Source of the DNA: an uncultured cyanobacterium
Lineage (GTDB): Bacteria; Cyanobacteriota; Cyanobacteriia; PCC-9006; JAAUQQ01
Direction of reading: 5' to 3'
Assembly: GCA_963718615.1 (NCBI GenBank)
Contig: OY970368.1
Span: forward strand, 1,312,001-1,376,000
Length of the DNA: 64,000 bases
The position numbers were made by a program, and so were the translations under genes. Shown piece after piece: positions 481 to 20,360 of the stretch. How positions within the stretch are numbered: the first letter of the stretch is position 1; each line of letters opens with the position of its first letter. The notes beneath the pieces were generated by a model, which saw only the letters and a list, made by a program, of their open reading frames with translations, was not told the DNA's origin and made no database searches.

Positions 481-481
481 C

Positions 482-2038: not shown

Positions 2039-5000
2039 ATGAAACTCGCGGCAATTTTTGCCAGGGATGTTACTCGGAACATCCCGCCCGTCGTCTACTT
2101 CCATGAGCAGACTCCCGAGAAACTAGCAGAAGAAGTTTCTGAGTACATTATCACCGGAGGCTATGCCGATGGGGATCCCCGTGCGCAGCAGTCGAAGGCG
2201 ACGGGAATTCATGAGCAGTTTGTGCGGCTGCTCGGTGGAATTGCCAAAGCGTTAGGAAAGTCTGGTGGTCCAGAGCTGCCTGCCTCTTGGATTTCTGGTT
2301 TTTACGGTTCGGGTAAGTCGAGCTTCGCCAAGTTATTGGGGCTAGCGCTGGATGGGAAAGCGCTGCCCGATGGTCGTGGATTGGCCGCAGCGCTGTTAGC
2401 TCGGGATGACTCTGCCAAAGCCCAGGAGTTCCAGAAGGTTTGGGATGAGCTTAAAAGTCAGATTGACCCCATTGCAGTGGTCTTCGATATCGGTGCGGTG
2501 GCGCGGGATGATGAGCAGATCCATAACGCGATTCGACGGCAGCTCCAGCTGCGACTGGGCTATTGCGAGAATAGTTATGTAGCGGACTATGAGCTGAAGC
2601 TGGAGCAGGATGGCAAATGGGCTGAGTTTTTGGCCTGTGCCCAGCAGTCGTTGGGTAAGCCTTGGGATGAGGTGAAAACCGAAAAACTGGCTGAGGATAA
2701 GTTCTCCGCTGTTCTCCATGCCTTAATGCCAGAACTCTATTCTGAGGAGATGGCTTGGATTGATAGCCGGGCCGGGAGTCAGACGGGCATGGGCAGTTCG
2801 GCAGAAGAGGCGACCCAGGCGATCGCGGCCATGCTCAACTATCGCGCCAAGGACAAGACGCTGTTCATCGTCGTGGACGAGGTGAGCCAATACATCTTCC
2901 AGAACACGGGGCGGATGCTGGCGCTCCAGTCCTTTGTGTCATCGCTGGGGCAGCGGCTTAAGGGCCAGGTTTGGCTGCTGGCAACAGGCCAACAAAAGCT
3001 GGAAGACAACGAAGATGAGAGCAACATTGGCAAACTCAAGGACCGCTTTCCGCCGTCGCTGCGGGTGCATTTAGCGCCAGCGAATATCAAAGACGTGGTC
3101 CACAAGCGACTGCTGAAGAAGAACGCCAGCGAGGAGCCAGCCCTGCGGCAGCTCTTTGCCCAGCATCGCAGCGAGCTGAAGCTCTATGGCTACCAGTGCG
3201 ACAACATCACGGAAGAGGATTTTGTCGAGGTGTATCCGCTGCTGCCGGGCTATGTGGACCTGGTGATGCAGATCGCCTCGAACCTGCGGACGCGTTCGGC
3301 CAAGGCCAAGGGGGATGACTATGCCATTCGTGGTCTTTTGCAGTTGCTGGGCGAACTTTTCCGTGAGCAAAGGCTGGGAGAAAAGGATCTTGGCGAGCTG
3401 ATCACTTTAGATCAAATCTTTGAGATTCAGCGTTCTGCTTTGGACAACGATGTTCAAATTACCCTGAGTCGAATCTTTGACCACAACGCTGTGTTAGCTA
3501 ATTCTCCAGAAGAACGGGCGGCCAAGGCTGTGGCCCTGTTAGAACTGATCCAAGACCAGGAGCCCACCACGCCAGCGCTGGTGAGCCAATGTTTGTACCA
3601 GCGGCTGGGGGCAGGTAATCAAACGACTCAGATTGAGCAGGCCTTGAATAATCTCCGCGATTGGGGGCTGCTGTCCTATTCCGAGAAAACGGGCTATAAA
3701 ATCCAAAGTTCTGCGGGGCAAGAATGGGGGAGGGAGCGGGATAGCTATTCTGTTTCTTCGGGGGTGAGGAGCGAGCTGGTGGCGAGCAAGCTCAAGGATT
3801 TGTTGGGTGGGCTGGCTCGGCCTCGCTACCAAAACAACACCTTTCGCTGGTCTGCCTTTTACAACGATGGTAAGGAACAGCGAGAGGTGCCGTTGCAGAG
3901 CCCCCGTGACCTGGATGTGGTGACGGTGGATTTTCGCTATCTCAAAAGTAAGGACGATCGCAAACCCGATCTATGGATTCAGGAGAGCGATACTCATTTA
4001 TTGAAAAACCGTCTGATTTGGGTGGTGGGTGAAACCGGCGAATTGGACAGCCTCTTGCAGCACTTGGGGCGCTCCAAGCACATGCTGAGTAAGTATGAGT
4101 CGCGCAAACAGTCCTTGTCTGATGCGAAGAAGCGGTTGCTCGGGGATGAGCAGAGCAATTGCGATCGCCTAGAGAGCAAGGTCAAAGACGCCGTCAGCGC
4201 TGCCTTCATGGCGGGGGAGGTGTATTTCCAGGGGCGTAAGCTGGACAAGCAGACCCTGGGGAGTAGCTTTACGCAGCTGCTGGAGCAAGCGGCCAATCAT
4301 GTGCTGCCCCAGCTCTATAGCCGCTATGAGGGTACTCGCGTGGACCCGGCGGAGCTGAAGCAGCTACTGGCCAAGGAAATATCCGGGCCGTCCCAGAAGT
4401 TTATGGCGGGGGGCCTAGGCATCTTGGAAGAGGATGCGGGCAAATATACGCCGGTTTGTAATGGGACTGTGCCCCAGCGGATTTTGCAATATGTCCAGGA
4501 GGAGCAGGGGGTTGCCGGGGGAACCTTGCTCAGCCACTTTGGGGGACCGCCCTATGGTTACACGCCGGACCTGGTGCGGGCCTGTTTGGCAGGGTTGCTG
4601 CGGGGGCGCAAGCTCTCTATTCGACCGGAATCGGGCGCGGTGATCACATCCATTCAGGATGCGGGGGCGCGGGATATGTTCGAGAAGGATCGGGAGCTGA
4701 AGCGGGCTGAGGTGCTGCCGCCCAGCGAGACGGGAATTACGCCGCGCGATCGCATCAGCATGTGCAAGCTATTTGAAAAATACTTCAACACCGAGCTGGA
4801 GCGCGAAGACGATGCGATCGCCGATGCGGTTTTCCAATATTTCCCGGCCCAGTCCCAGCGCATTCGCGAGTTAGAGGCCAAGTACAATCGGCTGCCCCAG
4901 CGGCCCCCCTTGCCCAGCAGCATTGAGAAGCTGCGCGATGCTTTGCCCAAATGCGTGGGTGCTCGTCAGGTGGACCCAACCCTAAAGGAACTGAAGCGTC

Positions 5001-5665
5001 AGTTAGATGTTTTGGGGGATGGCTTACAGAAGCTGGGGATTATCCTGTCGGAGCTGACCGATGAGCGGCTGGCGGCGGTGGAGCGGGCGATGGGGGTGCA
5101 GCAAAACCAGGTGCAGCAGCTCCAGGCGGTGGAGCGAGATGGGGCCGTGCAGGGGGCGATCGCCAAATTAGCAGATCAGCTCGCCCTAGATGAGCCCTGG
5201 CGGGATATTGCGGCGCTGGATGCTGACCTCACAGCCATTGAACAGCACTACAAAGAGGTAAGGCTCTCGCTGCTTCAGGCCCAGGAGCAGGCGGCGGAGC
5301 AGATTAAAACCCAGATTCAGCGCCGTTCTGGGTTCTCGACGCTGAGTGCTGATCGGGCGGAATATGTCGTTGAGCCCGTGCGCAAAGCAGTAGATGACAC
5401 CACCCAGGAGGCCCTTTACCCTGAGCTACTACGACTGAAGGATTCTGCGAAGCTGCGGTTGCAGCGGGCTGCGGAACAGGCAAATAGCTATTTGGATGAT
5501 GCGCTGTCCACGGTGTCCGAAACAGAGGTGATTCTCTTCGATGCCCAGTTGAAGCATCAGGAAATCGGTTCGCCTGAGGAGGTGGAAGCGTTGGTCAATC
5601 GGCTCAAGGAGCGGCTGTTGGCTCAGCTCGCTGGAAAGGACAATGTGCGAATTCGGATCCAGTAA
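2039..5665 (+). CDS. brxC: BREX P-loop ATPase BrxC
   Basis: 1208 aa; WISGFYGSGKSSF Walker A; FIVVDEVSQY Walker B; KLKDRF; VYPLLP. Confidence 0.92.
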   Translation: MKLAAIFARDVTRNIPPVVYFHEQTPEKLAEEVSEYIITGGYADGDPRAQQSKATGIHEQFVRLLGGIAKALGKSGGPELPASWISGFYGSGKSSFAKLLGLALDGKALPDGRGLAAALLARDDSAKAQEFQKVWDELKSQIDPIAVVFDIGAVARDDEQIHNAIRRQLQLRLGYCENSYVADYELKLEQDGKWAEFLACAQQSLGKPWDEVKTEKLAEDKFSAVLHALMPELYSEEMAWIDSRAGSQTGMGSSAEEATQAIAAMLNYRAKDKTLFIVVDEVSQYIFQNTGRMLALQSFVSSLGQRLKGQVWLLATGQQKLEDNEDESNIGKLKDRFPPSLRVHLAPANIKDVVHKRLLKKNASEEPALRQLFAQHRSELKLYGYQCDNITEEDFVEVYPLLPGYVDLVMQIASNLRTRSAKAKGDDYAIRGLLQLLGELFREQRLGEKDLGELITLDQIFEIQRSALDNDVQITLSRIFDHNAVLANSPEERAAKAVALLELIQDQEPTTPALVSQCLYQRLGAGNQTTQIEQALNNLRDWGLLSYSEKTGYKIQSSAGQEWGRERDSYSVSSGVRSELVASKLKDLLGGLARPRYQNNTFRWSAFYNDGKEQREVPLQSPRDLDVVTVDFRYLKSKDDRKPDLWIQESDTHLLKNRLIWVVGETGELDSLLQHLGRSKHMLSKYESRKQSLSDAKKRLLGDEQSNCDRLESKVKDAVSAAFMAGEVYFQGRKLDKQTLGSSFTQLLEQAANHVLPQLYSRYEGTRVDPAELKQLLAKEISGPSQKFMAGGLGILEEDAGKYTPVCNGTVPQRILQYVQEEQGVAGGTLLSHFGGPPYGYTPDLVRACLAGLLRGRKLSIRPESGAVITSIQDAGARDMFEKDRELKRAEVLPPSETGITPRDRISMCKLFEKYFNTELEREDDAIADAVFQYFPAQSQRIRELEAKYNRLPQRPPLPSSIEKLRDALPKCVGARQVDPTLKELKRQLDVLGDGLQKLGIILSELTDERLAAVERAMGVQQNQVQQLQAVERDGAVQGAIAKLADQLALDEPWRDIAALDADLTAIEQHYKEVRLSLLQAQEQAAEQIKTQIQRRSGFSTLSADRAEYVVEPVRKAVDDTTQEALYPELLRLKDSAKLRLQRAAEQANSYLDDALSTVSETEVILFDAQLKHQEIGSPEEVEALVNRLKERLLAQLAGKDNVRIRIQ

Positions 5666-5682
5666 GCTGGGCAGGCTGATCG

Positions 5683-6994
5683 CTAGCCTCTAATGAGCGT
5701 GATGGCTCGATTTTGAGGACTGCATATAATCTCACTGGAGGTCCGGTCTGCGATCGCCCCCACCCCATCACTCTGGTCAAAAATCACGAGCCAGCCAGAC
5801 TGAAGTCCCAGCCCAGCCAAATACTGATCCAATTGCTCCAGGCCCGCCGCCAAAGGATCGGGTCGCCCTGAGCGCCAGACCTTTAGCTCAATGCCCAGGG
5901 TGACTGCTCGATAGCGAAACGGTCGTGGAATAGGCCAACATGCGCGGCATCACCTCCCGGTAAATGGGATTGGCAATGACTAAGCTGCCGGTCTCATCCA
6001 GGCGGCAAAGGCCCAGATCGATGACAAATTCAATGTCATCCACTGGCACATCGCCTAGGGGTTGCCCTGCCAACATGGGCTCCAGGATGGACTTGATCCG
6101 AGGCTCTCTGATGCGACTGGCGAGGCTGTCAATGTGGGTGTCGCGTCGTTGGATGAGCAGCTCTTTGGCGGCTTGAATATGCTCCTCGGTGATGGCAAGC
6201 GTGGGATCTGGAGCGACCACTTCTACGGCCTGTCTGGCCAGGGCATTGACGAGCCAGGGGTGGCCGTTGCTGAGGTGATAGGCGAGCTGGGTGGCGGCTG
6301 GGGTAAAGACCTGTCCGGTGTCTTCGCTGTGCTGGGCGTAGAGGGTGGCGACTTCCTCGGGGGTAAAGTTGCCCAGGGTGAGGGATTCAATTTTGATGTT
6401 GAAGGGACTGGCGGTGTGGAGTCGTTCGCTGCCGCCGGAGGCAACCTTGTAATCCCGCACATCCCTGAGGCCGATGAGGGCAACGGACTGGGGAAAGCCT
6501 TGGGGGCGACGGGGATAGCCGGAGCGAATTTGTCTGAGCAAGGAGATGAGAACTTCGTTTTCGAGGGCATCGACCTCGTCGATGAGGAGCACAATGGGAC
6601 GGGGGGAGGAGATGGCCCAGCCTTGCAAAGCACCATTGATGCTTGTGCCTGAATTTGCTTCGGGCCAAGAAAGGGGCTGAAGTTCGGGGGGAAGGTGATA
6701 TTGGATCCCCAGGAGCCATTCTTGGAGTATGGCTTGCTCTGCGGCAGTTGGGTCATCGGGATAGCCTGCACCCACTTCTGCGGAGACCATGACGGCGCAA
6801 TATTGGCCGCTGGCGGTGAGCTGCTGGGCGAGCGCGAGCATGGCGGTGGTTTTGCCGGTTTGGCGGGGGGCATGGATGACGAAGTAGCCCTGCTGGTCAA
6901 TCAAGCGCTTGACGGTGGGCAAGCGCGTTGCAGGGGGGAGCATGTAGTGCAGGTCGGGCCGACAGGGACCAGCGGTGTTGAACCAGCGTGCCAT
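5683..6994 (-). pseudogene. AAA-like ATPase fused to PD-(D/E)XK nuclease, broken by internal deletion and frameshift
   Basis: MARWFNTAGPC start; HAPRQTGKTT Walker A; LLIDEVD. Frame stops at 5888, but another frame from ~5915 encodes the family C-terminus VTLGIELKVWRSGRPDPL..GLEQLDQYL..GWLVIFD..ITLIRG* ending at 5683. Confidence 0.8.
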
Positions 6995-6998
6995 GGAA

Positions 6999-7499
6999 CT
7001 AACTCTCTCCAGATTGCTTGAGTGCAATATCAATCACTGCCTGGCTAAGGCGAATGCCCTGGCCTAACATACGCTGGATTGAGTCTTTGAGAGTGACGGG
7101 ATGCCCTTCTCGCTTGGCACGGAGCAAGATTCCGATGGAGCCCGTGAGTTGCAATCCACTTAAACGTGCAATTCGTCGCCCGACGGCTTCGTCAATACAG
7201 ACCGTCGGAATGTTTCGATCCAGAGCAAGCTGAATGACGGCTGCCTCGCCCAGATCCAGAGAATTTGCCAGCATTGGATTTGGCGTTACCGGCTGGGTTT
7301 GTTTTTTAAGCCATGTTGCTTCATTAAATGCCACTAGACCGAAGCCACTAGGACCGCCTGCGGCTATTTCCTTGCAGACTTCTTGGGGGATCCAAACCTC
7401 TGTATAGAGTTCGCGCAGGATCTTCAAATCTCCCAAGGCTGCAATCAGGGCAAGTGTTGGCGAGGTATTCATGACAATGGTCTTGGCAGTATCAGGCAT
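6999..7499 (-). CDS. DUF3368 family PIN-domain putative toxin
   Basis: IVMNTSP..LDLGEAAVIQLA..IDEAVGRRIA..TGSIGILLRAK motif; coupled to a UPF0175 gene. Confidence 0.85.
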   Translation of the reverse strand: MPDTAKTIVMNTSPTLALIAALGDLKILRELYTEVWIPQEVCKEIAAGGPSGFGLVAFNEATWLKKQTQPVTPNPMLANSLDLGEAAVIQLALDRNIPTVCIDEAVGRRIARLSGLQLTGSIGILLRAKREGHPVTLKDSIQRMLGQGIRLSQAVIDIALKQSGES

Positions 7500-7746
7500 T
7501 GTCTAGATCTGAAAGAATATCTTCTGCTGTGAGGTCAATCATGGCTACGTTGTAGCGATGGAGGTTAAGGAGGAAGAACACTCGATCTACTCCTAAGAGC
7601 TGTGCAGCCATTCCAGAAGAGAGGCGCTGGAGTTCAAAGAGCTTCACTGCCATGGCCCATTTGGCTTCTTCTTCAAACTGCTGGCGGGTTTGGTGAAGCG
7701 CATCTGGGAGGCGATCTGGATAATCGATGGAAAGGCTCTGAACCAT
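7492..7746 (-). CDS. UPF0175 family putative antitoxin
   Basis: AMAVKLFELQRLSSGMAAQLLGVDRVFF HTH motif; 8-nt overlap with the DUF3368 gene. Confidence 0.85.
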   Translation of the reverse strand: MVQSLSIDYPDRLPDALHQTRQQFEEEAKWAMAVKLFELQRLSSGMAAQLLGVDRVFFLLNLHRYNVAMIDLTAEDILSDLDNA

Positions 7747-7916
7747 GGTTCTTGGGGCTTTTAGGCGACTTTAACCATTGTAGTCGCATGAACCGAGGAA
7801 GCTGAGGAGGGATAGATCGCATCATTGCATTGACGAAGATTGCAATTCCTAGGGATTTTCACCGAATTGAAGGAAAATTAGTGACTGACTTGCTCTCTCT
7901 CTAGACTCTGGTTTCG

Positions 7917-10900
7917 ATGACTGCTGCCGTTGCTCTGCTGACCGCTGACGCGAAGACGAAGCTTTCGAGTACGATTCGGGGGCTGCGCGATCGCCTCCTC
8001 ACGGATCTCCACAACGCCGCTGATAGCGCCTATAAGCTGAGTATTCGCGATCGCACCCAAGCGGGTCTCACAGAAGCCCAACGCCGCAAACGCCAGCGCC
8101 TAGAGGAATGGCTGGATGAGCAATTGCGGGCGGAGCTGGGCAAGCAAACCCCTGTGAAGGGCAAACCGGTGAAGCCGCCGACGAAGGCCGCAGAGCGACA
8201 AATCTGGGAACGCCACCTGCGGGATGCGGAAAAGCTAGCAGCGGCGACGCTGTTGAATCGGCTGGTGGTGATTAAGCAACTGGAGGCCATGGGTGAGATT
8301 AAGCCCAAGGTGGTGACGGGGGGCTGGGAGAGTCCGGGGTATCGGGATTTTCGGGATTTTGCGCCGGAGCTGTGTCGGGCGGATGCGGGGGATGGCACGG
8401 AGGGCTATAGCTTTTTGTTGCAGTTGCTGTTTGATGAGCTGGCGCTGGAGCTGCCGGGGTTGTTTGGGCCGGTGGGCCAGATGACGGGGTTAACGGAGTT
8501 GTTTCCGGTGCCAGAGGCGACGCTGCGCCATGTGGTGGAGCAGTTGAATCAGCCGGAGCTGGAGTCGGCTTGGGGGGATGATACGACGTTGGGCTGGGTC
8601 TATCAGTATTGGAATGACCCGGAGCGGGAGGCGCTAGATGCCAAGTTGAATGGCGGGGGCAAGGTGGAGCCCCATGAGGTTGCCAGTAAGACGCAGATGT
8701 TTACGGAGCGCTACATGGTGGAGTGGCTGCTGCAAAACAGTTTGGGGCAGCAGTGGTTGGCGATTTGTGCGGGGAATGGCTGGGTGCCGTGGGTGGAGTC
8801 GGAGGGGGTGTTGGCGCGGTTGGCGGCGCGGCGGGCGGAGTGGCGAGCAAAGCGGGAGGCGGGGGAGGTGGCGCTGGATGCGTTGATGCCGATTGAGACG
8901 GCGTTGGAGGGGCGGTGGAAGTATTGGGTGGAGCAGCCGGGGGTGAGGGGTAGCCAAAGCCTCACCAGCATTCGCGATATCAAGATCCTAGATCCCGCCT
9001 GCGGTTCAGGCCATTTTTTGGTGATTGCGTTTGATTTGTTGGTGGCGTTGTACGAAGAAGAGGCGCGGCACCGGGGGGTGGATTGGAGCGGGGCGGAGAT
9101 TGGGGAGTGGATTTTGGCGAATAATTTGCATGGGCTGGATTTGGATCCGAGGGCGGTGCAGATTGCGGCGGCGGGGTTGTTTTTGAAGGCGCGGGGGTTA
9201 GGGGCGCGGGTGAGTCGGTTGAATTTGGTGGCGTCGAGTTTGAGTTTGGCGACGTTGCCGGGGGATGATCCGGCGCGGGTGGCGTTGCAGGTTGAGGTTG
9301 AGGCTGCAACTGGGATTCCGGCGCAGTTGACGGAGCAGATTGTGGCGGCGTTGGCGGGGGCGGATGCTTGGGGGAGTTTGTTGAGGGTGGATGAGGCGGT
9401 GGATCGGGCGATTCGGGAGTTTGAGGCGGGGGTGCAGTTGGAACTTGGGGCTGGTGCTCCTCTCTCTCGCCAAGAACAAGCAGCGGGGAGAGGGGTTGGG
9501 GGTGAGGGTCTTCGTGCTCTGTTGGTGGAGCGGCTGGAGGCGTTTTTGGCGCGGTGTACGCGGAGTGATGATTTGGGGTTGCGGTTGCGGGGGGAGCAGT
9601 TGGCGGCGGGGGTGCGGTTTATTCGGTTGGTGCGGGAGGGGGCTTATGATTTGGTGGTGGGGAATCCGCCGTATCAGGGCTCTAGCAAGATGGCGGAGGA
9701 TGGCTATTTGAAGCGGCATTATCCGAGGGGGAAGGCGGATTTGTATGCGGCGTTTTTGGAGCGGGGGTTGCAGTTGGCAAAGCCGGGTGGGTTGTCGGCG
9801 TTGTTGACGATGCGGAATTGGATGTTTATTAGTCAGTATTCGGCAATTCGTGAATATTTGATTGATAATTTTGATTTGCGATCTTTAGGTGATTTTGATC
9901 GCGGGGCATTTGATGAGGTGCCCAATGAAGTTTTGGCCGTGGTGATGAGTGTGTTTCGTAATCAGCCGCCTTCGGGGGAGTTGAGTGTTGCGCTTCAGCC
10001 GACGCCGTTTGATGATTTATCCTATGACCGGCAGCGGACGAATCGGAAGCGGGCTGCGGTGTTGGCTCAGTTGGGGCGGTTTGAGTTTAGGAGCGATCGC
10101 TTCGAGGCCATCAAAGAAAAGCCGCTCATCTACTGGTGGGATGAGGAGTTTCTGAAGCGATATGCTGAGACCTCTAAAGTTGGAGAAGAAGCACCTGTTA
10201 AGTTCGGAGCCAACACAGGAAATAACTCTCGTTTTATTAGATCACCATGGGAAGTCCAAAGCAACTCAATTTACGCGGTCAAAACTTTTGCTACAAATGC
10301 ATTAAGCTCTACTTTTCGCTGGGTTCCATACATAAAAGGTGCTGCAGGTAAAGTCTGGTTTGAAAACTTGAGTCACATCATTAAATGGCAGCAACAGGCC
10401 TTAGAGCTTAAAGTCAGCGTTGTTCATAACTATGGCGAGGCTGGGCTGAACTGGAAGATCTGCAATAGCCAATATTATTTTGAGCCAGGAATTGCCTTTG
10501 TTATGATTGGTGCAGGCTTTTCAGCAAGGGCTCACAGATATAAAAGTGTCATCGATTCAATGGGTACATCGGTTTTTTCTAATGATTTATCTGAAGTTAC
10601 ATGTTTGTTAAATAGTTATCTCAGTAAGACAATTGCAACTGCGTTGAATCCTTCGATTCATTTTCAAGTCGGCGACGTAAACCGCCTCCCCCTCTTCCCC
10701 ATCGAATCCGCCGACGAAATCTTCATCCAACTAGATCGCGCCTTCACCCAACACGAAGCCGCCCGCGAAACCTCCATCGAATTCAAACAACCCGGCCCCA
10801 CCTGCTGGCCCTACGCCCAAACCTGGGCACAACAAGCCGTAGACCGCCCCGCCGGAACTCCCTTACCTGAGTGGCAACCCGAATACGAAAATCCAGAACC

Positions 10901-12089: not shown

Positions 12090-12093
12090 GACC

Positions 12094-12124: not shown

Positions 12125-12158
12125 AATGCCATCGTTTAGAACCGTTTAGCCAGCCACC

Positions 12159-12417
12159 ATGCCAGCCAGAGACCTTTTCCATAATGCAGTCGTTCACGCC
12201 CTTCAAAAAGACGGGTGGACTATCACCGACGATCCCCTTACGATTCGCTATGGTAAAGATCGTGTCTCCATCGACCTGGGTGCAGAACGACTCCTGGCAG
12301 CAGAACGCGGAAACGAGAAAATAGCAGTAGAGATCAAAAGCTTCCTTTGAGCAATATCAAGTCCAGTTACTTGTTTACGATCCAGATCAGGAGGTTATTA
12401 CTCAATGGCAAGCTTAG
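12159..12417 (+). pseudogene. xisH: XisH family protein with internal deletion
   Basis: MPARDLFHNAV..LQKDGWTITDDP..IDLGAE..IAVEIKSFL then stop; another frame gives the C-terminus QVQLLVYDPDQEVITQW*, overlapping xisI. Confidence 0.82.
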
Positions 12418-12788: not shown

Positions 12789-12804
12789 GCTTAAAACTAC
12801 AACC

Positions 12805-13008
12805 ATGACAAGCAAACAGACTACATCCCCGCCAGACAACTCAAATGAGCAGCTCCTGCTCAAATACTGGCGATTGCTGCCCGAAACACATCAGCAATAC
12901 GTCATCGACTATGCCGAATTCCTAAGGCAAAAGTATGGCTCAAAGACTGACTCTGCTGAAGCAAAGGAAAACATAACCGAGCCTAACCCAAATCCTACCA
13001 ATCTATAA
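12805..13008 (+). CDS. Small DUF2281-like putative antitoxin
   Basis: LLKYWRLLPETHQQYVIDYAEFLRQKY motif; ATG at 12805. Confidence 0.6.
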   Translation: MTSKQTTSPPDNSNEQLLLKYWRLLPETHQQYVIDYAEFLRQKYGSKTDSAEAKENITEPNPNPTNL

Positions 13009-13053
13009 CAGTTTTCTGATGCCATCTCACTTCAACTTTGAGGATATATTGTC

Positions 13054-13464
13054 ATGATTCCGATTCAACTCAACCTACCTGAAAGTATCACTTCCATCAC
13101 TAAAGGTACACCAGAGGAGTTTGTACAGGAGCTACGCTTGGCTGCTGCTGTCAAGTGGTACGAAGTCGGAACCGTATCTGAGTCACAAGCTTGTGAAATT
13201 GCTGGCATTAGTTGCCAAGCCTTTCGAGAAGCCCTCGATCGCTTTGGCGTCTCCCCTTATGTTGTCGGCGTTCGACAAGCCATCCTCAAGCAGATTGGCG
13301 ACTCCCCCTTGCCAGTCAGCCCCGAGGAGCTGGAATCAGAGATCTCTTGTCCTCCGCTCTCTGGGCCATTAACTCGCTTCATTGGTGCAGCTAAAGGAAA
13401 TTACAAGTCTGTGGAAGAGATTGACCAATTCATCCGTGAGGAACGTGATTCATGGAAATTCTGA
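13054..13464 (+). CDS. UPF0175-domain antitoxin with C-terminal extension
   Basis: ELRLAAAVKWYEVG.VS..QACEIAGIS...F HTH; GAGGA RBS; overlaps the downstream PIN gene. Confidence 0.75.
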   Translation: MIPIQLNLPESITSITKGTPEEFVQELRLAAAVKWYEVGTVSESQACEIAGISCQAFREALDRFGVSPYVVGVRQAILKQIGDSPLPVSPEELESEISCPPLSGPLTRFIGAAKGNYKSVEEIDQFIREERDSWKF

Positions 13465-13904
13465 ATCTTCTCCAGGGCGATCGCATCTACCTAGACACCA
13501 ACATATGGATCTATGCACTAGAAGAAGTTCCTGAGTTTTCCCAGTCCCTAATGGCCATCTTTCAGGCCATTGAACAAGAAACCATCACAGCGCTCACAAG
13601 TGAACTGTCCTTGGCCGAAGCCCTGGTTCGACCCATTAAAAATTCCAAGCCCCGTGACCAAGACATGTATAAACAAGCTATCGTCAGCGCTGGGAATCTA
13701 CAGGTCATGCCAGTTGATCGGACGATTCTGATCCGAGCGGCTCACGTGAGAGCTGAAACCAAATTGAAGCTCCCGGATGCCATTCATGCGGCAACCGCTC
13801 TATTTACCCAATGCACAACCTTCTTGACCAACGATAAGCAGCTCGGAGCCATCCCCGACATCACAGTCCTTCTCCTCTCCCAGCTCAACGCCGAATCGAC
13901 CTAG
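13452..13904 (+). CDS. vapC: VapC family PIN toxin
   Basis: IYLDTNIWIY, SELSLAE, LPDAIHAATA, FLTND acidic PIN motifs. Confidence 0.9.
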   Translation: MEILNLLQGDRIYLDTNIWIYALEEVPEFSQSLMAIFQAIEQETITALTSELSLAEALVRPIKNSKPRDQDMYKQAIVSAGNLQVMPVDRTILIRAAHVRAETKLKLPDAIHAATALFTQCTTFLTNDKQLGAIPDITVLLLSQLNAEST

Positions 13905-13909
13905 AATTA

Positions 13910-16852
13910 ATGCCCCAACTCGGCCCCATCACCCAAACACTCGAAGAAGAAATCAAACGAGACCTACGCCAGCAGGGCCTCATCATCTGGCTCGACAAAG
14001 ACGCCCACTACAGCGCCTACGTAGACCAGCTGATCGATCGCCATGCCCACAACGACTTCTTCGCCCCCGTCATCGCCTTTCGCGGCAGCTACCTCCAGCT
14101 TCTCTTCGACCTCGAAACCTACGGCAACGGCCTTGACCCGGATCGCCTCCTCATCCACATGCCCGGCCACAGCGAAGAAACCATCCGCAAAACCCCCCTC
14201 CTAGAGCTATACCTCCCCGGCAAACGCTTCCGCAAAGCCCTCCCCACCCTCGTCCGCGAGGCCGCCACCGGACGCCTCGCCCCCGATGAGATCGAAACCT
14301 ACCTCACCCACGGCCTCACCGACCTGGCCAGCGCCGAAACCTGGCTCACCACAGCCATCGCCCAACGCCAAGGCCACAACGACCCACACCGCAGCGACCT
14401 GGAAAACTACCTCAGTGGCCTCAGCCTAGAATGGATCCTCGAAGGAGCCCTGGGCCTCCACCCCGAATTTCAACAGCGCGTCAACAGCCTTGAACTGGGC
14501 CTAGAACTCGCCCAATACCTCACCCGCCACACCGGATTTAGCGATGAGTTTAGACGGTTTTACCTCAGTGACCGCACCGGTTCCCGCACCACCGGCTCCA
14601 TCGCCGAAGCCTTCACCGCCTGGCTGATGTGCGTCGAATACGTCCAGGATCTCCAGCGTGAGCCCCACCTCCCCGAACTCCAACCCCTCACCCAGCTCTC
14701 CGCTCCCCTCCGCCAAACCTGCCTGAACTTGGTCCATCACCTGCGGGACAAGCAACCCAAAACCTATCGCCAGCTCGCCCTACGCGTCGAAGGCCACCTC
14801 GAAAAAGAAATCGACCAAGTCGAAGCCACAGACCTCGGCAAGATCGACACCTTCCGCTGGGAAGAAAACAAAATCCTCGACAGCGCCCTAGCCGCCCTCG
14901 ACAGCGCCCACTGGCAGACCGTCCTCAATGCCTCCAGCCCCCGCATCGATAACAAATCCTTCTGGCTCAGCCAAGACCCCGAACGCGCCCAGGAATGGAG
15001 CCTAATCCACAGCGCCGCCCTCTTGGGCACCCGCCTGCGCGCCGCCCCCGATCCCCTGGCCGATAGCCTTAGTCTCGCGGATGCGATCGCCGTCTATACC
15101 GAAACCGCCTACCGCGTAGACCAAGCCCACCGCCAATTCGAACAGCAACGGGCCAAGCTCTTCGACTCCGCCTTGCCCCACTTCAGCCAGCTCCTCAGCG
15201 CCGCCGAAGCTCTGCGGGCCGAGTACCGTGCCTGGGCTGACCGGTTGTGCGATCGCTTCTGCCAGCTCTGCCAAGACCAAGGCTTCCTGCCCGAACCCCA
15301 CCTGCAACAGCGCCACCTCTTTGACCAAGTCGTGCTACCCCTGACCACAACCCACGGCGGTCGTAAGCCCACCAAAGTCGCCTACTTCCTGATTGATGCC
15401 TTCCGTTACGAAATGGCCGCCGAACTGCTGCCCCAACTGGAAGGCCCCAACCAAAACAGCGGAATTCAGGCCCATCTCAAAGCTCGCTATGCCGAACTGC
15501 CGACCATCACCGCTGTCGGGATGAACCTGCTGGCTCCGGTGAGCAGCGGCGGCAAGCTCACTGTTGCAGGAACAGACAAAAAGTTTGCTGGGTTTAAGAC
15601 CGGAGAATATACCGTTAAAGACCCCAAGAGCCGGGAGCGAGCCATGGGCGATCGCGCTGTAGGCAAACACGGCACAGTCATGCTGAAGCTAGATGAAGTG
15701 AGCGGCCTAGACCATACAACCCTCGATCGAAAATGTGACAAAGCCCAGCTCATTATTGTTCACAGTAAAGAGATCGACGACGCAGGAGAAGCCAACGTTG
15801 GCCCCCTCGCCTTTGCTGAGTTGCTCAAGCAAATCAAGTCTGCTTGCAATCGATTAAGGGCGATCGGCATTGGCGAATTTGTCCTCACCGCCGACCATGG
15901 CTTCTTACTGCAAGAAGAGACCTTTAGCAGCGTGGACCAAGGCACGAAGAAAACCCCGGAGCGTCGATACGCTTTCTCCCTCCATCCTGAACAGGGTAAC
16001 AAAAAGCTTTCGGTTTCCCTCGGCAGCCTGGGCTATCTAGATAAAAATGGGGGCAAAGAGGGCCATTTGATTTTCCTGCGCAGCACCGAGGTCTTCACCA
16101 CCGGCACCAAGGGCGCAAAATTTGTCCATGGCGGCAACAGCCTCCAGGAGCGTGTTATTCCGGTGTTGACCCTTTCGACGCGAAAACAGGCCCCGCTCAA
16201 TCTGCTGCGCTATCGCATTGAACTCGAAGCGGGCGAGAGCGTCATGAACCTGCAACGCTTGCAAGTCAGCATCAAGTCTGCGGCGGAGGCCCAGGGCGTG
16301 CTCGATTTCACCCATCCTCAGAAAAAAATTAGCTTGGGACTGCGGGTGCGCGATCGCGCCGATATCCAGGTCCGCATCAAGGGAGTCACCGCCGCAGAAA
16401 TGGCCAACCAGCAAATCTTGCTCGCCCCCAACGCCGACAAACCCGCCGAAATCTTCTTCGACCTCACCGGCCCCTACGACGAGCGCGTCCAGCTAGAGGC
16501 CTACCATCCCGACGGCATCGAAGAGGTTGAAGCCTGTCTCTCCCAAGCCTTTTTCCCAGTTGCAGGGGCACCAATTGAGAAAACAGAAGATTCAAAATCT
16601 AAGACGGTTGCACCCAAACCTCCCCCTGTTGCCACGGGCTGGATCGACAACTTCGAAGATGAGTCCCTCCAAAAGGTTTTCCGCCACATCGAAGACCATG
16701 GCTCACTTCATGAAACAGAACTGATTCAGATGCTAGGTAGTGCTCGAAAAGCTCGAATGTTCTCCAGGGAAATTGATAACTATCAACTCAAAATTCCTTT
16801 CACGATTCGTAGTGAATCCACTGCCTCCGGTAAGCGATACGTCAAAAACTAG
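13910..16852 (+). CDS. pglZ: BREX-6 phosphatase-family protein PglZ
   Basis: FLIDAFRYEMA, ELPTITAVGM, LTADHGF, FVHGGNSLQERVIP. Confidence 0.93.
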   Translation: MPQLGPITQTLEEEIKRDLRQQGLIIWLDKDAHYSAYVDQLIDRHAHNDFFAPVIAFRGSYLQLLFDLETYGNGLDPDRLLIHMPGHSEETIRKTPLLELYLPGKRFRKALPTLVREAATGRLAPDEIETYLTHGLTDLASAETWLTTAIAQRQGHNDPHRSDLENYLSGLSLEWILEGALGLHPEFQQRVNSLELGLELAQYLTRHTGFSDEFRRFYLSDRTGSRTTGSIAEAFTAWLMCVEYVQDLQREPHLPELQPLTQLSAPLRQTCLNLVHHLRDKQPKTYRQLALRVEGHLEKEIDQVEATDLGKIDTFRWEENKILDSALAALDSAHWQTVLNASSPRIDNKSFWLSQDPERAQEWSLIHSAALLGTRLRAAPDPLADSLSLADAIAVYTETAYRVDQAHRQFEQQRAKLFDSALPHFSQLLSAAEALRAEYRAWADRLCDRFCQLCQDQGFLPEPHLQQRHLFDQVVLPLTTTHGGRKPTKVAYFLIDAFRYEMAAELLPQLEGPNQNSGIQAHLKARYAELPTITAVGMNLLAPVSSGGKLTVAGTDKKFAGFKTGEYTVKDPKSRERAMGDRAVGKHGTVMLKLDEVSGLDHTTLDRKCDKAQLIIVHSKEIDDAGEANVGPLAFAELLKQIKSACNRLRAIGIGEFVLTADHGFLLQEETFSSVDQGTKKTPERRYAFSLHPEQGNKKLSVSLGSLGYLDKNGGKEGHLIFLRSTEVFTTGTKGAKFVHGGNSLQERVIPVLTLSTRKQAPLNLLRYRIELEAGESVMNLQRLQVSIKSAAEAQGVLDFTHPQKKISLGLRVRDRADIQVRIKGVTAAEMANQQILLAPNADKPAEIFFDLTGPYDERVQLEAYHPDGIEEVEACLSQAFFPVAGAPIEKTEDSKSKTVAPKPPPVATGWIDNFEDESLQKVFRHIEDHGSLHETELIQMLGSARKARMFSREIDNYQLKIPFTIRSESTASGKRYVKN

Positions 16853-16899
16853 GTCCTTGTCTCGTAGGTTTCTATTCCTGTTGTTTCCCTCTGGTTATC

Positions 16900-18228
16900 A
16901 TGACTATCTCCCAACGCGACATTGAACATATCTTCGAGCGCCTGCGCTCCGGCGTGGTCCCCGAGCGGGGCTTAGAGGCCTTCGCCGTTGGCATCGACAA
17001 ACAGCGCAATGAAATCCATCGGCAATTGAGTCTGGCAGGCGATCGCGAAGGCGTCTTCAAATTCCTGCGGGGCGGCTACGGCTGCGGCAAGACCTTCATG
17101 TCCCAGCTCACCGTCCTCGATGCCCAAACCCAGGGCTTCGCCACCAGTTTCATCGTCGTCTCCGACAACGACCTCCACTTCTACAAGTTCGACGACGTTT
17201 ACCGCAAAATCGTCCAGGAGCTGGGCACGAATCAATGCCCCAAAGGAGCCCTCAACGACATTATCGATCGCTGGATCGGCAGCGTCGAAGATGCCCTGAT
17301 CGATGGCGGAGCCAACGAAGACAGCGATGACTTCGATGCCCAGGTCAAACAGCGCCTGGAAGAAGACCTCGCCTCCATGACCAACGGCAAAGCCCCCGAA
17401 GACATGGCCCGCGTTCTCCGCGCCATCTTCGAACTCAAACAAGCAGGCAAACTAGCCGAAGCCAGTGCCCTGATCTCCTGGCTCTCCGGCAGTGAGAACG
17501 TCGCCGCCACAGCCAAAAAAGTGGCAGGCATCAAAGGCGACATCGGCAGCCGCGAAGCCCTCGACTACCTCCAGGGCATCCTCGCCATCACCCGCGCCGC
17601 TGGCTACCAGGGCCTCGTCATCGTCATCGACGAAGCCGAAACCATCCTGCGGATGCGCAATGACGTGCGCGGCAAATCCCTCAACGGCATTCGCCAAATC
17701 TGCGACGCCGCCGATAAATACCCTGGTCTGCTCTGGGTCTTCACCGGCACCCCCGAATTCTTCGACACCAAGCGCGGCGTTGCCGGACTTCAGCCCCTGA
17801 ACGACCGCATTGAGTTCCTCTCTGGCTCGAAAGACAACAGATTTTCCAATCCTCGCCAGCCTCAGCTCGAACTCAAACCCTTCGATGCAGCACGCCTAAA
17901 AGAAGTCGCCCTCAAGCTGCGAGAAATCTACCCCACCCAAGATCAAGCCTTGCTGCGCACAAAAGTCCCCGTTGAATTTATTGAACGGCTGGTGGAGCAA
18001 GTGACAGCGGGCTTCAAAGGGGATGTCGGTGTGGTCCCCCGTCAGTTTCTGCGCCGCTTTGTCAATGTTCTAGATTTGGTGATTCAGAACCCGGACTACA
18101 ACCCCATGGCCGAGGAAGGCTTTGAGCCCGTCGATCCCACTGAAGACGAACAGCGTATCCAGGAAGGCAAACCGCCCTATGACCCTGAGCCCGAGGATGA
18201 AAAGGGCTATGAATTGGTTGAATTTTAG
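16900..18228 (+). CDS. brxD: BREX ATP-binding protein BrxD
   Basis: LRSGVVPERGL, GGYGCGKT Walker A, IVIDEAE, NPRQPQL. Confidence 0.92.
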   Translation: MTISQRDIEHIFERLRSGVVPERGLEAFAVGIDKQRNEIHRQLSLAGDREGVFKFLRGGYGCGKTFMSQLTVLDAQTQGFATSFIVVSDNDLHFYKFDDVYRKIVQELGTNQCPKGALNDIIDRWIGSVEDALIDGGANEDSDDFDAQVKQRLEEDLASMTNGKAPEDMARVLRAIFELKQAGKLAEASALISWLSGSENVAATAKKVAGIKGDIGSREALDYLQGILAITRAAGYQGLVIVIDEAETILRMRNDVRGKSLNGIRQICDAADKYPGLLWVFTGTPEFFDTKRGVAGLQPLNDRIEFLSGSKDNRFSNPRQPQLELKPFDAARLKEVALKLREIYPTQDQALLRTKVPVEFIERLVEQVTAGFKGDVGVVPRQFLRRFVNVLDLVIQNPDYNPMAEEGFEPVDPTEDEQRIQEGKPPYDPEPEDEKGYELVEF

Positions 18229-18242
18229 GGAGGAGCGAAGTC

Positions 18243-20360
18243 ATGACCACAGCCTTTTCTCGCTTTCATCCTCGCTTGCAAGAGGCGATCGCCAACCGCA
18301 TCGGCTGGACCTCCCTCCGCCCCGTCCAAGAACTGGCTAGCCACGCCATCCTCGACGGCAAAAACGCCGTCATCCTCGCCCCCACTGCCGGAGGCAAAAC
18401 CGAAGCCTCGATGTTTCCGCTGCTTTCCAGCGTCATGGCCAATGAGCCCGAGGGACTTGGACTGATTTACATCGCCCCGATCAAAGCCCTGCTCAACAAC
18501 CAAGCCGAACGCCTGGGCACTTATACCGAAATGGTCGGTCTGCGCCGCTTCCTCTGGCATGGTGATGTCACCGCAACTGAAAAGAAGACGTTTATTCAAG
18601 ACCCCGCCACGTTACTGATGACCACCCCGGAATCCTTAGAGGTGATGTTGCTATCGCCCAAGGTGCCGGATACCAAGATTTTTAAGGATCTGCGGGCGAT
18701 CGTCATTGATGAGGTTCATGCCCTGGCTGGGAGCGATCGCGGCACCCACCTCCTCTCCGTCCTAGAACGCCTCGCCCGCCACACCGAGAACGACATCCAG
18801 CGCATCGGCCTCAGCGCCACCGTCGGCAATCCTGAAGCCATCCTCACCTGGCTCCAGGGCACTTCCCAACGCCAGGGCGAAGTCATCGACCCCCCCAAGC
18901 AACCCTCTCCCAAAGCGCTGCGCATTTACCTGCGCGATACCCTCGGCGGCATCGCCACCGAAGCCAGCGCCCAGGCTTACCAAAACAAAAGCCTCTTCTT
19001 TTGCCAGAGCCGCGCCCTCTCCGAAGACATTGCCGAGCGCATGCGCCATCGCGGCACCGATGTCTTTGTCCACCACAGCTCCGTCTCCCTCGAAGAACGA
19101 GCTGCTGCGGAAGAACGCTTTAGTCGTGGCAGCAACACCTGCATCGTCTGCACCTCCACCCTAGAACTGGGCATCGACGTCGGCGACCTCGACCTCGTCC
19201 TCCAAGCCAACGCTGCTTCTACTGTCGCATCCTTCCTCCAGCGCCTGGGCCGCACCGGACGACGCCAGGGGCAGCGGGCCAACACCACGTTCTACTGCGA
19301 GGATGTGGAGACGGTCTTGCAAGCCGTGGCGATCGTCGAGCTGACCCGCAAAGGCTGGGTCGAATCCGTCCCCGTCCAAACCCGCTGCTGGCCCGTCCTC
19401 GTCCACCAACTCCTCGCCCTCACCCTCCAATTCGGAGCCATCAGCCCGGAGCGCTGCTGGGAACAGCTCTCCACCGTCTCGGATTTCTCCGGCATCAGCC
19501 GCGAAGAATTTGATGACCTGCTTCAGTTCATGGAGCGAGAAACCTTTCTTTTCAGCTCTGGCGGCCTGCTCTCCATGGGCGACAAGGCCGAGAAAGTCTT
19601 TGGTCGAAAGAACTTCATGGAACTCTACGCGGTCTTCAGCAGCCCCCAGCTCTACAAAGTTCAAACCAAGGCCAACTACACCGTCGGCACATTAGAACAA
19701 TCTTTCGTCGATAAGCTCGTCCCCGACATGAGCTCCTTCCTCCTCGGCGGGCGCGGTTGGACCGTCATCAACGTCAACCATGACGACCGCACCGTCCAGG
19801 TCATGGCCGCTCCCCGAGGCAAAAAGCCGAGCTGGAGCGGTTTTGCTCCCCAGCTCCTCAGCTTCGAACTCTGCCAGCAAATCGCCGAGCTGATTCGTAG
19901 CGACCAGCCCATTCCCCTCCTCGACCCCATCGCCCAGGATGCCCTCACCTCCTACCGCGAAGAAGTCGCCCCCCTAATCAAGCCCAACCAGCTCAATCTC
20001 ATTGTCGAAGAGAAGCGATCGCTCATCTGGACCTTTGCTGGAGGTCAAATCAATCACACGCTCAAATATGGCTTTCAGTTCCACCACGACTGGAAAGTGG
20101 TCGTCGATAACTTCCGCATTCGCATTGAAGGAGAGGAAGTGGGGACAACCTCGATCTTGCTGGCGATCGAGCAAATGCAAAAACCCGGCTTCTGGGAAGC
20201 AGCAGCCACCCGCGACTTCATCCTGGAGCAGCTCCCCAACTATCGGCTGAGCAAGTTTCAACCCGCGCTGCCGGATGAGTATTCGCTAGAGTTGGTTTGG
20301 GATTATTTACTGGATGTGAGGGGGGCGATCGCATACCTACGCAAAACACTAGATCAATAG
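18243..20360 (+). CDS. brxHI: Lhr-like DEAD/DEAH helicase BrxHI
   Basis: APTAGGKT, IDEVH, LSAT, TSTLELGIDVG, QRLGRTGRR; directly follows brxD. Confidence 0.88.
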   Translation: MTTAFSRFHPRLQEAIANRIGWTSLRPVQELASHAILDGKNAVILAPTAGGKTEASMFPLLSSVMANEPEGLGLIYIAPIKALLNNQAERLGTYTEMVGLRRFLWHGDVTATEKKTFIQDPATLLMTTPESLEVMLLSPKVPDTKIFKDLRAIVIDEVHALAGSDRGTHLLSVLERLARHTENDIQRIGLSATVGNPEAILTWLQGTSQRQGEVIDPPKQPSPKALRIYLRDTLGGIATEASAQAYQNKSLFFCQSRALSEDIAERMRHRGTDVFVHHSSVSLEERAAAEERFSRGSNTCIVCTSTLELGIDVGDLDLVLQANAASTVASFLQRLGRTGRRQGQRANTTFYCEDVETVLQAVAIVELTRKGWVESVPVQTRCWPVLVHQLLALTLQFGAISPERCWEQLSTVSDFSGISREEFDDLLQFMERETFLFSSGGLLSMGDKAEKVFGRKNFMELYAVFSSPQLYKVQTKANYTVGTLEQSFVDKLVPDMSSFLLGGRGWTVINVNHDDRTVQVMAAPRGKKPSWSGFAPQLLSFELCQQIAELIRSDQPIPLLDPIAQDALTSYREEVAPLIKPNQLNLIVEEKRSLIWTFAGGQINHTLKYGFQFHHDWKVVVDNFRIRIEGEEVGTTSILLAIEQMQKPGFWEAAATRDFILEQLPNYRLSKFQPALPDEYSLELVWDYLLDVRGAIAYLRKTLDQ

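Follow-up and report, generated by a model that had tools for sequence, protein, structure and literature searches.

A mirror-image strand skew flanks the target-recognition domain of a cyanobacterial pglX gene and recurs at other variable genes of the genome

We analyzed a stretch of 64,000 nucleotides (the window; contig OY970368.1 of assembly GCA_963718615.1, positions 1,312,001 to 1,376,000) from the 6.1-Mb single-contig genome of an uncultured cyanobacterium. It carries a BREX operon with pglX, the gene for the adenine methyltransferase and specificity factor of the system. Within the one open reading frame (ORF) of pglX, the plus strand switches from G/T-rich to C/A-rich around a short, unskewed block of low GC content that coincides with the target-recognition domain (TRD) of the enzyme. 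We refer to this block as the core and to the skewed regions on its two sides as the left and the right arm. This signature is not specific to BREX, and on the best reading of the data, pglX is one instance of a genome-wide mark of module exchange that is amplified in certain lineages.

The skew flip inside pglX and the exchange of its core

In 500-bp windows of the plus strand, the GC skew was +0.39 to +0.51 and the AT skew -0.12 to -0.33 across positions 8251-10000, the GC skew was about zero at 10251-10750, where the GC content was 0.42, and the two skews were -0.32 to -0.43 and +0.30 to +0.40 across 10501-12000. The extremes of the GC skew were +0.51 at 9001-9500 and -0.43 at 11001-11500, and the AT skew was always opposite in sign. 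At a resolution of 100-bp steps, the skew changed abruptly at 10000-10100 and again at 10600-10700, and the core had a GC content of 0.37-0.48 and a keto skew (G+T against A+C) of only -0.14 to +0.18. The cumulative curves turned at 10615 (G-C) and at 10664 (G+T-A-C), and each of these points is the maximum of the whole window. The turning point thus lies in the variable region at 10.1-10.7 kb where an earlier, sequence-only reading of this DNA had placed it, and the other two patterns described by that reading, the flip within pglX and the skew of the same sign across the operon, were borne out by the 500-bp and the codon-position-3 skews. Few flips in this genome are as extreme as that of pglX: the 1-kb GC skew has a genome-wide standard deviation of 0.107 and a 99.9th percentile of 0.457, and a matched filter designed to detect a G/T-rich arm with a C/A-rich arm behind it scored 0.38 at pglX, the second highest value in the genome.

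The third codon position dominated the skew. Here, the GC skew was +0.76 to +0.93 and the AT skew -0.57 to -0.78 at 8300-10100, as compared to -0.82 to -0.84 and +0.55 to +0.83 at 10700-11900; when the right arm was followed to its end (10680-12089), the third-position GC skew ranged from -0.74 to -0.84. The skew at positions 1 and 2 together was no more than about +/-0.2-0.3. Four-fold degenerate sites consisted of G 0.74, T 0.12, C 0.10, and A 0.04 in the left arm (n = 292) and of C 0.85, A 0.08, T 0.04, and G 0.03 in the right arm (n = 231), with G 0.09, T 0.39, C 0.20, and A 0.32 in the core and G 0.30, T 0.19, C 0.36, and A 0.15 in the long ORFs of the genome. The GC content at these sites was 0.84-0.88 in the arms, 0.66 in the genome, and 0.29 in the core. 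At two-fold pyrimidine sites, the left arm had 89 T and 7 C, the right arm 90 C and 9 T, and the core 28 T and 13 C, and at two-fold purine sites the corresponding numbers were 79 G and 10 A, 73 A and 11 G, and 16 A and 12 G. The amino acid composition changed along with the arms, with Gly at 9.8% in the left versus 4.8% in the right arm, Val at 7.0 versus 1.3%, Pro at 4.7 versus 9.3%, and His at 1.0 versus 3.7%, and the right arm was also richer in Thr and Lys. The claim that the skew is carried largely by synonymous positions therefore holds with a correction, as it is not purely synonymous.

The pglX product matched the solved PglX/BrxX structures 8c45 (E = 8.5e-64) and 9ewz (E = 7.8e-58) in phmmer searches, and its residues 541-936 aligned with residues 465-857 of the Salmonella PglX 8c45. 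In the part of Went et al. (2024; PMC11341690) that deals with specificity, the TRD of that protein is given as residues 662-849, with specificity-changing mutations at 684-838. This TRD maps to residues ~739-928 of the PglX analyzed here, and the low-GC core comprises residues 742-921. The core coordinates thus coincide with the TRD, and the flip is centered on it.

Comparisons with homologues showed that the core is the divergent part of the protein, with an amino acid identity of 0.33-0.53 as compared to mostly 0.55-0.73 in the arms. The median GC content at third codon positions (GC3) in core versus arms was 0.27 versus 0.54/0.57 in cyanobacteria and 0.62 versus 0.84 in other organisms. 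Among the 70 pairs listed of the 81 homologue pairs with a left-arm identity of at least 0.75, five were the same record twice, and the core identity of the 65 non-identical pairs was 0.27-0.66 throughout. Three pairs from the Nostoc/Tolypothrix group illustrate the contrast, with identities of left arm, core, and right arm of 0.97/0.46/0.92, 0.97/0.52/0.91, and 0.97/0.39/0.92, and a pair of Streptomyces and Micromonospora gave 0.93/0.38/0.77. At the DNA level, four Nostoc/Tolypothrix loci were 92-99% identical over ~15 kb, with an identity of ~0.5 in a core of 600-900 bp, and the divergence climbed within the last ~1 kb before the core on both sides. Metagenome contigs from four runs of four studies covered the window in a way that left 10265-10615 empty, a gap that in itself carries no weight as evidence, and the contig of a close relative fitted the right arm from 10647 onwards and continued leftwards with 255 unlike letters. 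Judged from the identities of arms and cores, the core is exchanged by recombination between relatives whose arms stay 91-97% identical.

The source of new cores was examined within the genome itself. The arms, the core, and the 5' part of pglZ gave self matches only against the 6.1-Mb genome (blastn, E <= 1e-5), neither blastn nor tblastn found a second copy of the core in it, and the search for inverted repeats gave chance-level matches only, the best being 29 nt at 76%. As there is no second copy of core or arm and no significant inverted repeat, the locus is not a shufflon, and new TRDs must come from other genomes via the arms. Three candidate mechanisms were rejected: a site-specific shufflon or phase-variable switch, for which flanking inverted repeats and silent TRD copies are missing (a recombinase was not searched for); a diversity-generating retroelement, for which the genome would have to repeat the core or an arm and does not (no search was made for a reverse transcriptase); and a flip caused by inverted duplication between the halves of pglX, for which there is no significant inverted repeat. 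Seven genomes of the same family gave no pglX match at E <= 1e-20, and among 60 relatives pglX was matched in only two, which belong to another family and share 29-30% identity. The best protein identity over the best segment was 67% in the genome collection and 62% in the metagenome collection.

Recurrence among PglX homologues and across the genome

Left arm, core, and right arm were all recoverable in 49 of the 79 PglX homologues in the genome collection. With a threshold for the third-position keto skew of |keto3| >= 0.15 in the arms, mirror skew with the expected signs was present in 15 of 19 cyanobacterial and in 5 of 30 other homologues, and opposite signs occurred in none. The median difference between left and right arm was 0.55 in the cyanobacterial and 0.23 in the other homologues. 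Mirror skew was strongest in Phormidesmis-, Leptolyngbya-, and Pseudanabaena-like records, and some Myxococcota had a clear but weaker one. As the homologues share only ~60-70% protein identity, their silent sites were replaced long ago and each lineage must be maintaining the skew continuously, and as TRD exchange is found in all lineages and strong skew is not, the skew depends on the host and not on PglX. One record, a metagenome-assembled genome (MAG) of Rhizobium sp., has a PglX homologue with a GC3 of 0.51-0.58, a core GC3 of 0.23, and a mirror skew of +0.58/-0.60; this contig with its cyanobacterium-like GC3 in pglX may be mis-binned.

Across the genome, 1-kb windows with |GC skew| > 0.3 defined skew islands, 67 of positive and 68 of negative sign. 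Neighboring islands less than 8 kb apart formed 32 pairs in the order positive then negative, as compared to six pairs in the reverse order, four of which sit directly between two adjacent positive-then-negative pairs. The matched filter gave a similar result, with 32 G/T-to-C/A flips against seven opposite ones at a score of 0.2, and 18 against one at a score of 0.25. The recurrent anatomy consists of an arm with a GC content of 55-62%, an unskewed core of 0.5-4 kb that often has a GC content of 33-50%, and a mirror arm.

We inspected 20 regions (L001 to L020) that hold 21 of the 31 flips other than that of pglX; they were picked for clear arms and not randomly, and ten flips were left out. 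Without exception, the ORFs at the flips of these 20 regions fall into polymorphic groups of defense or conflict type. Three regions (L005, L006, L010) contain Type I restriction-modification (R-M) operons (hsdM-hsdS-hsdR) with hsdS in the core, and one region with two flips (L014) contains MmeI-like Type IIG genes whose TRD lies in the core. STAND NTPases (NACHT, NB-ARC, or nSTAND with TPR, WD40, or HEAT) were found at L001, L002, L011, L012, L013, and L020, CHAT and/or TPR proteins at L003, L007, L008, L009, L015, L017, L018, and L019, TPS secretion proteins at L016 and L018, and a chaperone-usher pilus locus at L004. As a control, we analyzed 20 random loci, at which none of the 33 center ORFs fell into these groups (one had an mCpol domain, and eight had no match) at an E-value cut-off of 1e-8, which is stricter than the 1e-5 used for the flip loci. 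These results bear on two points of the sequence-only reading. It had proposed to look for the pattern at pglX and other R-M loci of related cyanobacteria; the pattern recurs in the cyanobacterial PglX homologues and at the R-M loci of this genome. Flips of equal amplitude at random loci, which it had named as a counterargument, do exist in the sense that there are 31 others in the genome, but the loci are not random, with variable genes in 20 of 20 regions against 0 of 20 random ones.

Some of these regions have unusual gene arrangements. The Type I R-M locus at 653300-663300 (L005) looks fragmented, with an hsdM piece of 368 amino acids that covers only the C-terminal part of N6_Mtase, a Fic gene, a one-TRD hsdS of 290 amino acids, an IS1 transposase, a Fic-like C-terminal piece, and an hsdR piece of 444 amino acids, and yet its arms are mirror-skewed. 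At 1982000-1997000 (L009), a cluster of CHAT-TPR genes contains two directly adjoining mirror-skew units, and an IS1 transposase fragment (8768-9208) is located between a CHAT-TPR ORF of 747 and a TPR-only ORF of 433 amino acids, as if these were one split gene. At 3578000-3594000 (L014), two adjacent MmeI-like Type IIG loci have one mirror flip each, and at both, the TRD ORF (458 and 443 amino acids) is apart from the methyltransferase ORF with small ORFs in between, which may reflect split or fragmented genes. The cumulative G-C curve of the genome peaks at 2,486,065 and is lowest at 5,582,399; as both extremes fall on local mirror-skew loci, skew-based calls of origin and terminus would be driven by the islands in this genome.

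The skew became weaker with growing distance from the core. The mean keto skew of the 32 loci was 0.26-0.28 at 0-1 kb, ~0.15 at 1-2 kb, ~0.08 at 2-3 kb, ~0.05 at 3-5 kb, and ~0 past 6.5 kb, symmetrically on the two sides, with the averaged profile being blurred at the 9 of 32 loci where the fit of the core boundary collapsed to zero length. The sign of the skew does not follow the direction of genes. In 54 of 56 arm ORF segments from 20 loci with two clear arms, the sign of the third-position skew was set by the side of the core (left arm, 8/8 on the plus and 19/21 on the minus strand; right arm, 9/9 on the plus and 18/18 on the minus strand), a tally that is informative on strand independence alone, as the loci had been selected by skew. 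The coding strands of genes directed away from the core are C/A-rich, so that a transcription-coupled cause is disfavored.

The same holds for the outer parts of the BREX operon. To the left, the third-position GC skew of the plus strand was +0.21 to +0.45 across 2000-5900, the region of brxC, the GC skew in 500-bp windows was +0.28 to +0.31 at 6251-7000 in late brxC and the AAA ATPase gene, and the third-position GC skew of the plus strand was +0.42 to +0.58 within this AAA gene, which lies on the minus strand. As the coding strand of the AAA gene is itself C-rich, the skew tracks position and not gene direction. To the right, the GC skew in 500-bp windows was -0.32 to -0.40 in the 5' part of pglZ and -0.13 to -0.29 in brxD and brxHI, and the third-position GC skew was -0.60 to -0.78 in the 5' part of pglZ, -0.22 near 16 kb, -0.64 to -0.67 in brxD, -0.45 to -0.58 in brxHI, and -0.39 in lpxC. 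The negative skew ended near 21.6 kb, with the window minimum of the cumulative G-C at 21602. Two low-GC inserts in the operon stand out from this pattern: the DUF3368 insert was unskewed (third-position GC skew 0.02 at 7100-7699), and the insert with xisI and a toxin-antitoxin pair was weakly skewed (-0.15 to -0.32).

Origin of the skew

On both sides of the core, the strand whose 3' end lies toward the core is depleted of C and A and enriched in G and some T. As the 3' end of the G/T-rich strand thus points at the core on either side, the polarity matches that of the 3' tails that remain after resection from a break in the core; for geometric reasons, the reverse polarity would result if an incoming linear fragment were resected from its ends. 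A comparable footprint is known from human meiotic break hotspots, at which C and A are lost from the 3'-tail strand (C>G, A>G, C>T) within 1-2 kb, according to the passages of Hinch et al. (2023; PMC7615360) on strand asymmetry. On balance, we lean towards the view that the pglX flip is a local case of a genome-wide signature that brackets modules exchanged by homologous recombination, with a strand-polar substitution bias that starts from the core. The involvement of breaks and resection, and the action at the level of mutation or of fixation, are what we infer from the polarity and from the human analogy.

The TRD is a low-GC cassette that differs between relatives, and in the proposed mechanism, the conserved arms serve as homology for its exchange. 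Recombinational repair would repeatedly start at or in the heterologous core, and 5'->3' resection outwards would leave the 3'-ended strand single-stranded on each side. Damage to this single-stranded tail, or a copying bias opposite the tail, would then push substitutions one way, and GC-biased conversion in the arms would add a GC-favoring force. The effect is greatest in the first 1-2 kb and fades over ~5 kb. The bias is continuously maintained and host-dependent, being strong in cyanobacteria and weak in most other phyla with pglX.

Two hallmarks of a break footprint, the mirror polarity with a C/A-depleted 3'-tail strand and the decay on a kilobase scale, are present in the sequence. As far as the passages on asymmetry in PMC7615360 go, the human hotspots and pglX agree in the mirror polarity, with loss of C and A from the 3' tail (the forward strand on the left, the reverse strand on the right), and in a scale of 1-2 kb with longer tails and a central zone free of asymmetry. 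They differ in that the human footprint is a mutation-rate excess in de novo and rare variants, whereas the pglX arms have a near-saturated equilibrium composition, and in that the human break is programmed by SPO11, whereas a break at pglX is conjectured from polarity and analogy. The human translesion polymerases also have no Y-family counterpart here.

GRINS, in the passages of Nivina et al. (2021; PMC8256042) that define them, are duplicated regions with more than 80% DNA identity within the same cluster, and their mean absolute GC and TA skews exceed 0.15 over more than 500 bp and are correlated. By this measure of skew, pglX is GRINS-like over ~1.8 kb in the left and ~1.4 kb in the right arm. 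From what these passages describe, further likenesses are intense, correlated GC and TA skews with both signs on one strand within ~1 kb, in functional coding sequence; the strongest skew at third codon positions; the shift between Gly/Val/Cys/Trp and Pro/Thr/His/Gln; and a tie to gene conversion and module diversification. However, GRINS are duplicated by definition, whereas the pglX arms are single-copy in this genome, and the passages in question describe neither a mirror around a heterologous core nor a decay with distance nor defense-specificity modules. They do note that skewed regions can be single-copy and that GRINS occur in many phyla and gene families, and they state that 77% of the cyanobacterial GRINS overlap transposases (PMC8256042). 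A GRINS-type conversion between paralogues was rejected for pglX, as its arms are single-copy. A search of open-access papers and bioRxiv for mirror skew around variable bacterial genes gave only the GRINS and the human hotspot paper, and within this open literature, we found no description of a mirror, single-copy arrangement of GRINS-like skew.

Switching of hsdS specificity is known to proceed via inverted repeats and recombinases. For pglX, the natural switching mentioned in the relevant part of Went et al. (2024; PMC11341690) is phase variation. The same part describes hsdS, MmeI-family, and PglX enzymes as having their specificity in a discrete TRD, which can be altered while the catalytic part is left as it is; the core of the pglX analyzed here maps onto that TRD and is swapped between relatives. 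Unlike in the known switching of pglX and hsdS, there are no repeats or silent cassettes at this locus, and the arms carry a compositional mark that is not reported there.

Several observations weigh against a recombination-linked substitution bias as we propose it. The decay with distance from the variable region, which the sequence-only reading had suggested, is seen over the 32 loci, but to the right of the pglX core the skew does not fall steadily and rises again to secondary maxima in both brxD and brxHI. A search for the Y-family polymerase domain (PF00817) gave no match in this genome, which is rated 100% complete, so that translesion fill-in, as put forward for the human hotspots, is not at its disposal in that form. 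At four-fold sites, G (or C) makes up 74-85% and the T:C ratio is near 1, and two-fold pyrimidine sites have a T:C ratio of 13:1; because of this mismatch, simple C->T plus A->G deamination is insufficient without a GC-favoring force. Lineage-specific arm changes at five Nostoc-group loci were balanced, with 50 amino-to-keto versus 60 keto-to-amino changes in the left and 79 versus 64 in the right arm, and in the left arm, G>A (38) was more frequent than C>T (19). This fits an equilibrium and gives no positive sign of a skew-building mutational input, with mutation bias and fixation bias not being separable by these changes, which are substitutions between species. Nor does the proposed mechanism account for why breaks would fall in the cores.

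Strand-polar biased gene conversion, in which an arm heteroduplex of the invading 3' tail and a donor strand would be corrected with a base and strand bias, would create the skew by biased fixation and without any excess of mutation, and we regard it as a possible but less probable cause. It is in agreement with the raised four-fold GC content of the arms relative to the genome and the core, as expected where homology exists, with the balanced Nostoc-group changes that lack a C>T excess, and with the similar skew levels of homologues whose silent sites must have turned over. However, the Nostoc-group data compare species and fit a recombination-linked substitution bias equally well, and we know of no bacterial mismatch-correction system with a keto versus amino strand bias. 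We consider it improbable that the arms are selected recombination pads, in which G/T-rich 3' tails would be favored for RecA loading and pairing or for a Chi-like action and the skew would be kept by selection for exchangeability. The geometry would suit this idea, as the G-rich strand is oriented like an active Chi for a break in the core, RecA is said to prefer GT-rich single strands, and the pattern is confined to modules whose exchange is plausibly useful. The GRINS authors, in the passages cited above, also propose that skew itself raises gene conversion (PMC8256042). Yet about 90% of the silent sites are affected, which is beyond the reach of second-order selection on single sites, and the skew extends into the neighboring housekeeping gene lpxC. 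In addition, 40 arm tails (60 kb) contained no dominant oligomer, and their top k-mer excesses were HIP1-related and not arm-specific, which weighs against a motif-based, Chi-like explanation. RecC (PF04257) and the alpha-type AddB (TIGR02786) gave no match in the genome rated 100% complete (other AddAB types, RecJ/RecQ, and deaminases were not searched for), which makes a RecBCD/Chi route unlikely as such; the control genome of Synechococcus elongatus matched PF00817 and TIGR02786.

An asymmetry due to transcription or R-loops, with convergent sense and antisense transcription into the core exposing the non-template strand on each side, is very unlikely in our view. The non-template strand gains G and T by deamination, G-rich non-template DNA favors R-loops, and the left arm has the sign expected for an operon read from left to right, but of the segments whose genes point away from the core, 19 of the 21 in left arms and all 9 in right arms have C/A-rich coding strands, the minus-strand AAA gene of this operon included, and one ORF, pglX, bears both signs. 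We give hardly any credence to a BREX-specific diversification of pglX, for example by programmed breakage by BREX components at the specificity region, although the flip is centered on the TRD and spans the operon, and PglZ is described as a nuclease in one paper. However, 31 other loci that have no BREX genes share this architecture and its polarity, the genome offers neither inverted repeats nor silent cassettes of the TRD nor a second copy of pglX, and PglX homologues of other phyla swap TRDs with little or no skew. The sequence-only reading had combined a symmetric recombination footprint at the specificity region with a special diversification route for BREX; the footprint is the best-supported reading, with breaks and resection as its conjectural part, and the special route is unsupported. 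Finally, a structural or replication artifact, whether a join in the assembly, the breakpoint of an inversion, or a site where replication starts or ends, seems next to impossible. A G-to-C switch of this sign is what a replication terminus shows, but the flip lies inside an intact ORF with which 79 + 77 homologous loci are colinear, both arms are matched at 85-99% by independent metagenome contigs, and an assembly or inversion breakpoint, which the sequence-only reading had named as a possible refutation, thus does not explain the flip. The cumulative G-C extremes of the genome lie at 2.49 and 5.58 Mb, away from the window at 1.31-1.38 Mb and the flip at 1.32 Mb, there are 32 such sites in the genome, and an origin would have the opposite polarity. 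Skews that arise from replication or from the time spent single-stranded (bacterial leading versus lagging strand, vertebrate mitochondrial H strand) favor G and T on the single-stranded strand, as here, and the four-fold amplitude in the pglX arms is comparable to that of mitochondrial genomes. Such skews span replichores or genomes, whereas the islands described here are 1-5 kb long, number 32 per genome, and lie at variable modules with a terminus-like polarity. A replication terminus or origin was rejected as a candidate on account of the position of the genome-scale cumulative switch and the 32 local flips.

The BREX operon, its inserts, and implications

PADLOC identified the BREX gene set brxE, brxA, brxB, brxC/pglY, pglX, pglZ, brxD, and brxHI, complete in one operon (Table 1), with E-values of 6e-44 for BrxE, 7e-83 for BrxA, 2e-82 for BrxB, 0 for BrxC and PglX, 3e-294 for PglZ, 2e-165 for BrxD, and 2e-277 for BrxHI. 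The operon resembles what we take to be BREX type 6 in the numbering of Goldfarb et al. (2015).

Table 1. Features of the BREX locus, with positions in the window
Feature	Positions	Strand	Evidence and remarks
pglX, BREX adenine methyltransferase and specificity factor	7917-12089	+	one open frame, 1390 aa, both arms and core
left arm, N-terminal helical and methyltransferase part of PglX	8300-10100	+	G/T-rich
core, low-GC unskewed block, target-recognition domain (TRD)	10140-10680	+	residues ~742-921
right arm, spacer helices and C-terminal region of PglX	10680-12089	+	C/A-rich
brxE (cut by window start), brxA, brxB, brxC	7-5665	+	PADLOC; outer left region, weak positive skew
AAA ATPase gene	5888-7033	-	Pfam AAA_35/AAA_22
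low-GC insert, DUF3368 / PADLOC PDC-S70 gene and spacer	6999-7830	-	Pfam, PADLOC
low-GC insert, XisI and UPF0175/PIN toxin-antitoxin pair	12100-13904	+	Pfam; slot between pglX and pglZ
pglZ, brxD, brxHI, lpxC	13910-21411	+	PADLOC (PglZ, BrxD, BrxHI); outer right region, negative skew

The operon is interrupted by two gene inserts, the AAA gene with the DUF3368/PDC-S70 gene at 5888-7499 and xisI with the UPF0175/PIN pair at 12405-13904. In contigs of relatives from two metagenome runs, position 6996 is joined to 7830 by 96 other letters, and the segment replaced in these contigs is thus a recent insert. Its DUF3368 gene matches the PADLOC candidate defense family PDC-S70 and lies, like the AAA gene, antisense between brxC and pglX. 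The gap between pglX and pglZ was 89-2079 bp in the 16 relatives measured, with 89-190 bp in Nostoc, Tychonema, Stigonema, and one Leptolyngbya record and 0.8-2.1 kb in the others, and contigs of relatives bypass 1.1-1.3 kb of this spacer, from 12074 to 13384 in one metagenome run and from 12043 to 13144 in another. By this comparison, the spacer is a variable slot. At the start of the xisI ORF, there is a repeat of a CAAGCA unit with a 12-nt period at 12430-12468.

If a recombination-linked bias is indeed the cause of the flips, base composition alone would mark sites of module exchange and the side on which the exchange point lies, and a finder for swappable specificity and sensor domains of defense systems could be built from sequence only; in this genome, composition alone picked out R-M, BREX, STAND, CHAT/TPR, secretion, and pilus genes without any annotation. 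The strand-asymmetric recombination footprint that has so far been documented at human meiotic hotspots would then extend to bacteria, and GRINS would gain a geometric context, namely a mirror around a heterologous core. On the practical side, skew-based origin and terminus calls are misled by such islands, detectors of codon usage and horizontal transfer will misread the arms, and the arms may serve as natural homology cassettes for engineering BREX or R-M specificity. A bolder and rather doubtful extension is that cyanobacteria, and to a lesser extent some Myxococcota, may run a strand-polar rewriting of the DNA beside exchangeable modules into G/T-rich 3' tails, by an enzyme activity yet to be identified in a genome that lacks RecBCD and Y-family polymerases. 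As the rewritten arms would in turn raise exchange, this would be a self-reinforcing, genome-wide system that keeps defense specificities swappable, and the modules kept in this state would include PglX, hsdS, and MmeI TRDs, STAND and CHAT/TPR sensors, secreted toxins, and pilins.

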